NCBI RefSeq assembly: GCF_030384885.1
Contig: NZ_CP128613.1
Origin: Escherichia coli
Lineage (GTDB): Bacteria; Pseudomonadota; Gammaproteobacteria; Enterobacterales; Enterobacteriaceae
Length of the DNA stretch: 64,000 nucleotides
Direction: 5' to 3' (one strand)
The notes beneath the pieces were generated by a model. That model was not told where the DNA came from and did not search any database. It saw nothing but the letters and a program-made list of their open reading frames with translations. Positions 61,375 to 62,128 of the stretch are shown here, piece by piece (position 1 is the stretch's first letter; every line of letters begins with the position of its first letter). The translations under genes were made by a program, and so were the position numbers.

Positions 61375-61767
61375 TTATTCTGATTCATCTATGTCGAGAC
61401 GAGCAAGGAAATGACGAATTCCTTCACGTGACAAAAATTGCGCAACTTTTTCCTGCTCACTGTGAGTCATGTTGTCTATTGCGCTGATGATTTGCCGATA
61501 AGCGGGAGTGCGAATCCCCGGTGCATATTCGGCAAGGGGTTCTTCGGCTTCCAGAAGCATCGGCGTGTTATGGAAGGCTGGTGTATTCTGAATAAACTCG
61601 CAAACTTGCGTATCGATCAGAATAAGTCTGGCGCGACCGCCTTTCACGCCGGGAAATTTTTCCGTTTTCCAGCCTTTCTCTCTGATCCAACGGTTAACAG
61701 TTTGTTTAGCCACACCGAGGCATTCCGCCAGTTCTTCGGTGGTCATTTTATTGCGTAATCTTTTCAT
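61375..61767 (-). CDS. yfeD: Putative DNA-binding protein YfeD (DUF1323)
   Basis: 130-aa ORF; N-terminus MKRLRNKMTTEELAECLGVAKQTVNRWIREKGW is paralogous to the adjacent yfeC. Confidence 0.8.
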   Translation of the reverse strand: MKRLRNKMTTEELAECLGVAKQTVNRWIREKGWKTEKFPGVKGGRARLILIDTQVCEFIQNTPAFHNTPMLLEAEEPLAEYAPGIRTPAYRQIISAIDNMTHSEQEKVAQFLSREGIRHFLARLDIDESE

Positions 61768-61768
61768 A

Positions 61769-62128
61769 TTATTTGCTATCGCGAATCCCTAAGCGTTGTA
61801 ATAACCCGATAATCCCTTCCCGCAGAAGCAAGGATGTAAACTGTTTTTGTTCAACTGGCGTCATCTCTTTCGCCAGTGTCACCAGTAACACTTCAAGCGG
61901 CGTATCACCAGACAGGGCAGGTGCTTCTCCCTGACCTTCCGGACGTTCAGCATTGCGAATATATTCACGAACCTGTTCATTGACGTGAACCAGTCTGGCT
62001 TTGCCACCCTGGACGCCTGGTTTTGGTGACGTCGTCCAGCCTTCCTTGCGTACCCATTTATTAATGGTCTGACGGCTATAACCGGTCAGTCTGGCAAGTT
62101 CATCTGGCGTCATCCTCTCCTTGAACAT
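61769..62128 (-). CDS. yfeC: Putative DNA-binding protein YfeC (DUF1323)
   Basis: 119-aa ORF; MFKERMTPDELARLTGYSRQTINKWVRKEGW, paralogous to yfeD. Confidence 0.8.
   Translation of the reverse strand: MFKERMTPDELARLTGYSRQTINKWVRKEGWTTSPKPGVQGGKARLVHVNEQVREYIRNAERPEGQGEAPALSGDTPLEVLLVTLAKEMTPVEQKQFTSLLLREGIIGLLQRLGIRDSK

Follow-up and report, generated by a model that had tools for sequence, protein, structure and literature searches.

yfeC and yfeD of Escherichia coli: a probably ancient tandem pair of two-domain DNA-binding regulators beside gltX

Introduction

Why does the Escherichia coli chromosome carry two small, adjacent and similar DNA-binding genes, yfeC and yfeD, beside gltX, how old is the pair, and do its two products act separately or as one unit? 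These questions arise from a sequence-only reading of the window, by which we mean the whole 64,000-nucleotide stretch of contig NZ_CP128613.1 (assembly GCF_030384885.1) to which all coordinates below refer. Two adjacent same-strand ORFs had there been described as a local duplication of a small regulator of unknown target. The last part of this description is outdated, as a check of the literature gives ChIP-exo sites for both YfeC and YfeD (PMC8464067). In what follows we argue that the genes are probably an ancient tandem pair, formed in situ, of two-domain DNA-binding regulators of the PF07037 family that share one operon and have diverged to largely different sites.

Gene Layout and Paralogy

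Positions 61375-62128 hold exactly two ORFs in the ORF list, both on the minus strand and together filling the interval, and transcription thus runs from yfeC to yfeD. The genes and their neighbors are as follows:

61769-62128, minus strand: yfeC coding sequence, 119 aa, the upstream, conserved paralog (ORF list; full-length PF07037 match; RefSeq yfeC)
61375-61767, minus strand: yfeD coding sequence, 130 aa, the downstream, faster-evolving paralog (ORF list; full-length PF07037 match; RefSeq yfeD)
59909-61324, plus strand: gltX, convergent with yfeD
62349-62424 and 62464-62539, plus strand: two tRNA-Ala(GGC) genes, divergent from yfeC

These coordinates confirm the location given by the sequence-only reading, with gltX flanking the pair on one side and the tRNA-Ala genes on the other. 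The window matches the chromosome of E. coli 2013C-4282 at 100% identity, and both genes carry the same names in its RefSeq annotation; the region is found in 5,425 of 5,426 complete E. coli genomes, and the gene order of K-12 is the same (nupC-pdeA-alaXW-yfeC-yfeD-gltX-valUXY-lysV). With 99% identity to K-12 YfeC (b2398), 92% identity to K-12 YfeD (b2399), shared synteny and membership of both proteins in the same Pfam family, the window genes are, on these grounds, orthologs of b2398/b2399. The window strain differs from K-12 in carrying another allele class in the 3' half of yfeD, to which we return below.

Aligned by BLASTP, YfeC and YfeD share 37% identity and 57% positives over their full length (E = 3e-27), so that their paralogy is real and far beyond chance. 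Both match a single Pfam family, PF07037 'YfeC-like' (formerly DUF1323; gathering score 22.9 bits), YfeD with 204.3 bits (residues 8-129 on profile positions 1-122) and YfeC with 171.8 bits (residues 6-118, again on 1-122). The relationship, which the pairwise alignment bears out, is ordinary and already catalogued in Pfam and RefSeq. The N-terminal segments had been called nearly identical, which overstates a match of 27 residues in 54 (50%), and the motif ascribed to both proteins, TxxELAxxxGxxxQTxNxWxRxEGW, fits YfeC (RKEGW) and fails at its end in YfeD (REKGW); the form common to the two is TxxELAxxxGxxxQTxNxWxRxxGW. A second block of similarity, MTxxEQ...REGIxxxLxRLxI (16/47 identical), lies in the C-terminal part of both proteins and had escaped the earlier reading.

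Protein Architecture

The structure of YfeC was predicted with AlphaFold2 from an alignment of 104 sequences (mean pLDDT 80.9), and the domains of YfeD were placed by alignment:

61949-62116, minus strand: YfeC N-terminal winged helix-turn-helix, residues 5-60 (AlphaFold2, Foldseek, weak HTH_17/excisionase profiles)
61793-61897, minus strand: YfeC C-terminal helical hairpin, residues 78-112, putative dimerisation module (AlphaFold2)
61582-61749, minus strand: YfeD N-terminal winged helix-turn-helix, residues ~7-62 (alignment to the YfeC domain; HTH_17 match)
61399-61503, minus strand: YfeD C-terminal helical hairpin, residues ~89-123 (alignment; helices 76-86 and 90-111 in the fused model described below)

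In the model the N-domain of YfeC comprises a short strand, helices 8-15 and 19-29, wing strands 33-35 and 45-48 and a helix at 51-60. The wing is followed by a disordered, poorly conserved linker (residues 61-77, of which 63-68 fall below pLDDT 50) and then by helices of 11 and 22 residues (78-88 and 91-112, pLDDT 89-94) that form the hairpin, with no effector domain. The hairpin motif is conserved in both paralogs. As a hairpin of two helices and ~35 residues would hardly be stable by itself, we infer that it most likely pairs with a second hairpin into a dimer. A model in which the C-domains of YfeC and YfeD were fused through an artificial linker, using a genome-paired alignment, gives four helices with a pTM of 0.62, 24 of the 118 residues being disordered artificial linker; this value is compatible with hairpin-hairpin packing in a heterodimer or a homodimer alike. 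A Foldseek search of solved structures with the fused model returned no match.

Foldseek matches of the YfeC N-domain include BldC, the DNA-binding domain of MuA (1tns) and P2 Cox. The whole YfeC model searched against the PDB in the same way gave nothing convincing, and weak whole-chain MarR matches with rmsd values of 8-12 Å were disregarded. A sequence search of solved structures with YfeD produced no match even at E<=10.

Relation to Known Families

The N-domain of YfeC resembles in fold the Streptomyces protein BldC (PDB 6ama, 6amk), with TM scores of 0.62-0.70 normalised to BldC, an rmsd of 2.6-3.3 Å over 54-57 columns and Foldseek probabilities of 0.99-1.0, and there is a weak match to the NCBIfam BldC profile; BldC and YfeC have ~20% of their sequence in common, and Foldseek E-values for the match reach no better than 0.04-0.07. 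BldC is a single domain, to which a linker and a conserved hairpin at the C-terminus are added in YfeC and YfeD. BldC multimerises head-to-tail on direct repeats, and the motif reported for YfeC is, unlike this arrangement, an inverted repeat.

YfeD is labeled 'MerR family' by PGAP. The MerR proteins, SoxR for example, which activate by distortion of promoters with 19-20-bp spacers, belong to the same winged helix-turn-helix superfamily and likewise have a helical region C-terminal to it, and SoxR is among the weak Foldseek matches of the YfeC model. However, MerR proteins have a long antiparallel coiled-coil helix directly after the wing as well as an effector-binding region, both of which are absent from the YfeC model, and neither of the Pfam MerR models, PF00376 and PF13411, is listed at E<=0.1 for YfeC or YfeD. 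Since there is no MerR Pfam match and the region after the wing is unlike that of MerR, the label appears to be a loose and poor name for proteins that would not be members of the family.

Excisionases, Xis-TorI, P2 Cox, the Mu repressor and MuA (HTH_17, 'Mu-type HTH') have the same winged-helix topology as YfeC and YfeD; UniRef labels some of the orthologs 'HTH Mu-type domain-containing protein', and both 1tns and 4lhf are found among the fold matches. HTH_17 (PF12728, cut-off 27 bits) is passed by YfeD with 31.1 bits and not by YfeC with 20.9 bits, and for the TIGR01764 excisionase model (cut-off 28.8 bits) YfeD falls just below with 27.5 bits and YfeC further below with 18.7 bits. In contrast to proteins of the excisionase type, YfeC and YfeD have no recombinase partner or mobile-element context and are chromosomal core genes whose products act as transcription regulators.

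Probable Operon and Translation Start

Several short elements at and around the two genes bear on their expression:

61765-61771, minus strand: stop-start junction TAAtATG (yfeC stop, 1 nt, yfeD start)
61341-61369, no strand assigned: probable bidirectional intrinsic terminator common to gltX and yfeCD (12-bp stem, T-runs on both strands)
62169-62177, minus strand: predicted extended -10 element of the yfeC promoter, TGtTATAAA (TGnTATAAa conserved in 17 genera)
62134-62139, minus strand: Shine-Dalgarno-like AGGGAA, separated by 5 nt from the first yfeC ATG downstream of it (conserved as CAGGRAA at almost every locus)
62288-62316: tRNA-Ala promoter TTGACA-17-TATGAT (promoter scan)

The 1-nt spacing at the TAAtATG junction, found in 52 of 81 loci with the remainder at -20 to +19 nt, suggests translational coupling within an operon, and yfeC and yfeD are probably co-transcribed. 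The hairpin between gltX and yfeD looks like a terminator shared by the two converging units. An alignment upstream of yfeC across 17 genera reveals a conserved extended -10, a GTCAC block and the Shine-Dalgarno sequence, and the yfeC promoter is likely to be located at the conserved -10; a generic sigma-70 promoter scan called no yfeC promoter. A search of the E. coli yfeC-alaW spacer for repeats or operator-like repeats yielded short weak matches only. Other genera show a clearer palindrome upstream of yfeC than the E. coli spacer does.

RefSeq places the K-12 yfeC start at the second Met (114 aa), in contrast to the 119 aa of PGAP. The first ATG is universally conserved across the loci compared, and the variation at codon 4 (GAG/GAA) and codon 5 (AGG/CGG/CGA/CGT/AGA) is synonymous; for these two reasons the comparison supports the 119-aa form over the K-12 annotation.

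Age and Origin of the Pair

A pattern scan that used one genome per species gave 280 relatives, of which the best 80, all Enterobacteriaceae, were analyzed. In all of these best 80 of 280 relatives yfeC is followed by a yfeD-like gene, and in most of them a convergent gltX comes next; in addition to these 80, Cedecea and Cronobacter have the yfeC-yfeD pair beside gltX. In Chimaeribacter (Yersiniaceae) the syntenic site carries one copy only, convergent with gltX. A neighbor-joining tree of 171 sequences shows two cleanly separated clades, one of YfeC and the other of YfeD, which points to one old duplication, and the simplest history would be a duplication in situ at or near the base of the Enterobacteriaceae. 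The local duplication of the sequence-only reading thus stands as a tandem duplication of a small helix-turn-helix regulator, and what does not stand is any recent or strain-level event, the pair being Enterobacteriaceae-wide. One Enterobacter genome carries a third copy.

The two clades have evolved at different rates. Mean pairwise identity among orthologs is 74% for YfeC and 54% for YfeD, and conservation per domain is 0.92 for YfeC versus 0.76 for YfeD in the N-domain and 0.84 versus 0.65 in the C-domain. Fixed clade-specific residues in the recognition helix and wing include K24/R26, S34/E36, Q40/K42 and K43/R45. Selection is purifying, with dN far below dS in every comparison.

When 1.84 billion representative proteins were searched with a profile, only 204 matches at E<=1e-3 resulted, many of them fragments or generic poly-helix-turn-helix proteins. 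The named full-length family members in this search are all from Enterobacterales, and on these data the YfeC-like family is lineage-restricted. Long matches made up of multiple stretches were set aside as generic poly-helix-turn-helix proteins rather than family members.

The tRNA genes nearby raise a different origin. Such genes are common integration sites, the locus sits between two tRNA clusters, and the pair could in principle be what is left of an integrated mobile element whose helix-turn-helix genes resembled excisionase, Cox or the small terminase subunit. Weak profiles (TIGR01764 just under its cut-off, Terminase_5 and Mu helix-turn-helix), weak PHROG matches to DNA-binding, excisionase and small-terminase families, the fold similarity to MuA and P2 Cox, and a base composition lower than that of gltX (GC 0.47-0.50 and GC3 0.44-0.47 for yfeC/yfeD versus 0.52 and 0.57) all lean this way. 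Yet in the window and in relatives, Cedecea, Cronobacter and Chimaeribacter included, the conserved yfeCD locus contains neither an integrase nor a transposase, and there is no attachment-type repeat or other phage gene at the locus; the mobile-element matches cover the generic helix-turn-helix only and were counted as below family cut-offs. Moreover, the position is identical in 80+ genomes of many genera, the single-copy ortholog of Chimaeribacter occupies the same site, and purifying selection is strong. We regard a mobile origin of this kind as very improbable.

Published Function and the Question of Partners

For YfeC, Gao et al. 2021 (PMC8464067) reported a regulon and a binding motif together with 50 sites mapped by ChIP-exo, and their list for YfeD has 43 ChIP-exo site entries. 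The YfeC motif is a TTC-rich inverted repeat with a 6-nt spacer, for which the authors modeled a homodimer, and deletion of yfeC led to 205 differentially expressed genes, with 16 of 20 direct targets repressed (PMC8464067); the K-12 RefSeq product name of YfeC is 'DNA-binding transcriptional dual regulator'. The same deletion raised yfeD mRNA 20-fold (log2 fold change 4.33, padj 5e-133; PMC8464067), a rise that could reflect read-through from the cassette, the construction of the deletion not being described in the source. A link between yfeC and the release of extracellular DNA had come from an earlier screen, cited in PMC8464067. A yfeC mutant of E. coli K1 colonised the neonatal rat small intestine poorly and grew normally, and in EHEC a yfeC mutant showed no negative effect on LEE1 transcription. 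Many papers that mention 'yfeC/yfeD' deal with a homonym, the YfeABCD metal transporter of Yersinia, which is unrelated.

When the two site lists are compared a single identical site emerges (ispB/rplU). The ChIP-exo strains carried a C-terminal 8-myc tag, which, judging from the model, would be attached to the putative dimerisation hairpin and, in the case of yfeC, would separate two apparently coupled genes; several of the sites (mdtL, uxaB and rplC, for example) recur for unrelated factors. Because of the tags and the recurrent sites, both the lists and their apparent non-overlap must be read with caution. The site assigned to 'yfeC' itself, which we placed by our own conversion between genome versions with an inferred offset of ~1,978 bp, appears to lie at the 3' end/terminator of alaX, ~400 bp from the yfeC start, rather than at the promoter.

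The published data also bear on an old prediction, made by RASTA-Bacteria in 2007 (PMC2374986) and repeated in a 2018 TraDIS paper, that yfeD/yfeC is a type II toxin-antitoxin module. Small adjacent co-oriented genes of which one has a helix-turn-helix rank high in RASTA (PMC2374986), and there are weak helix-turn-helix matches of the YdaS_toxin type (18.7 and 14.2 bits, where the cut-off is 30). Toxin-antitoxin partners, however, are unrelated proteins of which one has a recognisable toxin domain, unlike YfeC and YfeD, which are full-length homologs of the same fold; no toxin domain is found in Pfam, NCBIfam, PHROGs or PADLOC; yfeC deletions are viable and grow normally in K-12, K1 and EHEC despite the 20-fold rise in yfeD mRNA; both proteins cross-link DNA at many sites; and the locus is fixed, syntenic and part of the core genome family-wide, not patchy as a mobile module. 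The prediction is scarcely credible. A reading of the genes as a defense system was also rejected, the only match being a generic helix-turn-helix match to mad1.

A more serious question is whether YfeC and YfeD are obligate partners, forming a heterodimer through their paralogous hairpins and binding asymmetric operators, with translational coupling supplying the subunits in equal amounts. The pair is never split in the best 80 of 280 relatives, most of which have the 1-nt junction, both clades have kept the C-terminal motif, and loss of yfeC shifts yfeD mRNA 20-fold. The pTM of the fused model is also in line with such a dimer, as it would be with a homodimer. The ChIP-exo entries argue otherwise, with one site in common between the 50 of YfeC and the 43 of YfeD, as do the symmetry of the YfeC motif and the homodimer modeled by its authors (PMC8464067). 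YfeD, furthermore, evolves much faster than YfeC, its C-domain included. We consider an obligate heterodimer unlikely, and a further point against it comes from the yfeD alleles described in the next section.

The reading that we prefer, that of an ancient tandem pair of regulators with largely different sites, would run as follows. A single ancestral gene beside gltX would have duplicated at or near the base of the Enterobacteriaceae. YfeC, encoded upstream, has since remained conserved, and its downstream counterpart YfeD has diverged faster, the recognition helix and wing included. Each protein would consist of an N-terminal winged helix-turn-helix of the MerR/excisionase/BldC/Mu type, a disordered linker and a C-terminal hairpin; paired hairpins would create a dimer whose two DNA-binding domains read an inverted repeat. 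Both genes would be expressed from one operon with the conserved extended -10 promoter, the 1-nt stop-start junction and the bidirectional terminator shared with gltX. YfeC would for the most part repress its targets, a few dozen scattered ones, and YfeD would bind a set of its own. The present analysis itself shows the paralogy, how the models divide into domains, how conserved and how old the pair is, the unequal rates of the two copies and their operon-like packing; DNA binding in vivo and the regulon are taken from the literature (PMC8464067).

Two Alleles of the yfeD 3' Half

Comparison of the window with other E. coli genomes reveals one further feature:

61334-61572, minus strand: dimorphic tract, yfeD codons 66-130 and the terminator region (identity distribution, dS, sliding differences and a 12-strain check)

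Over positions 61375-61600 the distribution is bimodal: 2,197 E. coli genomes match the window with an identity of 95% or more, 3,184 with 80-90% (the K-12 type), and only 45 lie between these, corresponding to frequencies of ~40% for the window-type and ~59% for the K-12-type allele. Codons 66-130 of the window and K-12 differ with a dS of 1.38 and a dN of 0.091, compared with dS values of 0.13 for yfeD codons 1-65, 0.17 for yfeC and 0.11 for gltX (all by the Nei-Gojobori method). Between the two strains gltX is 99% identical and yfeC and the 5' half of yfeD ~96-97%. The 195 nt that run from yfeD nt 204 to the terminator differ at 40 sites, of which 27 are third codon positions, and the strongly diverged stretch measures some 200-250 bp in all. 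The two YfeD proteins differ by 11 amino-acid changes, 10 of which come after residue 71 (positions 72-130).

Around the tract divergence is ordinary. Among 12 strains, identity of the flanks to the window is 95.5-98.3% irrespective of the yfeD allele class, and the same YfeC protein, WP_000472021.1, occurs with both classes. The K-12-type allele is also present in E. whittamii and other Escherichia lineages (dS 0.05-0.13), and E. albertii has a third allele type. No donor of the window-type allele was found among the best 80 of 280 relatives, the closest being E. albertii at 85%. Gene conversion from yfeC was considered and rejected, since of 25 differing sites 7 in the window allele and 9 in the K-12 allele match yfeC, which is the chance level.

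The occurrence of two very different YfeD C-terminal alleles with one and the same YfeC counts against the obligate heterodimer, and together with the fast evolution of YfeD it disfavors a tightly co-evolving interface. The tract itself goes back either to the old import of a short stretch by recombination or to a polymorphism that has been maintained. A more specific proposal is that selection maintains the two anciently diverged alleles, instead of their being the relic of a neutral import, and that they alter the choice of partner by YfeD (homodimer versus YfeC-YfeD) or an interaction with a ligand or other partner; we hold this to be decidedly doubtful. The yfeC/yfeD literature that we consulted, in which the dimorphism itself was no dedicated search topic, contained no mention of it, and the observation may be new.

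Concluding Remarks

The paralogy as originally stated matters little, being already in Pfam and RefSeq, and the YfeC regulon is published. Much of what the present analysis adds is housekeeping: a lingering toxin-antitoxin label is removed, 'MerR family' is argued to suit YfeD badly as a name, support is given to a yfeC start that yields 119 aa, the duplication is dated, provisionally, to the base of the Enterobacteriaceae with the single-copy state in a Yersiniaceae genus, and the published ChIP-exo data are flagged for C-terminal tags on what is apparently the dimerisation module. The dimorphism of yfeD is the only observation with potential for something new, as it offers a natural allele swap that probes the function of the hairpin. 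If the two alleles were indeed maintained by selection and altered the partners of YfeD, strains of E. coli would differ in the wiring of a two-paralog regulator.

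Two alleles of the yfeD 3' half

The 3' half of yfeD, including its terminator, exists within E. coli as two sharply distinct alleles, confined to the following tract:

window 61334-61572, dimorphic tract comprising yfeD codons 66-130 and the terminator

Among complete E. coli genomes the window-type tract is found in about 40% and the K-12-type in about 59%. The two types are about 19-20% different, with dS of about 1.4, whereas the flanks differ by only 2-4%, and an identical YfeC protein accompanies both classes of yfeD allele. A third type of tract is found in E. albertii.

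Start codon and upstream region of yfeC

In the K-12 RefSeq annotation the second Met of yfeC is taken as the start, giving a protein of 114 aa (window 62114-62128; positions 4453-4467 of the homologous locus L002). Because the upstream ATG, a CAGGRAA Shine-Dalgarno sequence and synonymous variation at codons 4-5 are kept across genera, comparison of the sequences supports the 119-aa form, as in PGAP, over the shorter K-12 one. Two repeats lie further upstream:

window 62211-62234 (minus strand) and the corresponding site in other genera, palindrome TTGCGAG-N5-CTCGCAA
window 62298-62324, GC-rich 10-nt inverted repeat, CGGGCGGAAT / ATGCCGCCCG

The palindrome, flanked by the upstream A/T block of the tRNA-Ala promoter and by the yfeC promoter, is present in Klebsiella, Enterobacter, Leclercia, Yokenella and others, with its left arm degenerate in Escherichia, and we regard it as a candidate operator. 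Within the tRNA-Ala promoter, the GC-rich repeat flanks both the -10 element and the discriminator, and it is kept across genera. A YfeC ChIP-exo site attributed to 'yfeC' has been reported at NC_000913.2 2516052-2516085 (Gao et al. 2021, PMC8464067). By our own coordinate conversion this site falls at about 62527-62571 of the window, over the alaX 3' end and terminator, with the start of yfeC about 400 bp away, and it may be an artefact of a highly transcribed region rather than evidence of autoregulation.

Copy number in other genera

Enterobacter sp. BIGb0383 (L051:4001-5144) carries three YfeC-like genes in tandem, of 122, 131 and 128 aa and overlapping by 4 nt. The third clusters with the YfeD clade, which makes it an additional, lineage-specific duplication. 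Chimaeribacter (Yersiniaceae; L087/L088:3001-3378) has one YfeC-like gene, of 125 aa and convergent with gltX, with nupC and a formate/nitrite transporter gene upstream; this single-copy arrangement is likely the pre-duplication state of the yfeCD locus.

The gltX side of the locus

An IS200/IS605-family element, containing a tnpA remnant and a TnpB/InsQ gene, has inserted between gltX and yfeD, at the common terminator, in some strains of E. coli. An Rfam match to RtT RNA, scoring 51.6 bits and so above the gathering score of 45, is located directly downstream of the tRNA cluster valU-valX-valY-lysV; RefSeq annotates this RNA in the window strain and in only a subset of the others that were examined.

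L092:814-2456 (E. coli MINF_1A), IS200/IS605-family element
L093:815-2456 (E. coli strain 143), IS200/IS605-family element
window 59098-59223, minus strand, RtT RNA

Names and family size

Genes of the YfeABCD metal ABC transporter of Yersinia and Haemophilus, an unrelated system, share the names yfeC and yfeD as homonyms. Most of the papers retrieved with these names concern that transporter, as do the entries in Salmonella metal-resistance gene lists. In the representative-protein search, four proteins of 427-1312 aa (P0182, P0183, P0194 and P0214) each matched the YfeC profile at 5-13 distinct places along the chain. Built of serial helix-turn-helix modules of generic type, HTH_23 and HTH_28 among them, they were rejected as members, and they make the YfeC-like family look larger than it really is.
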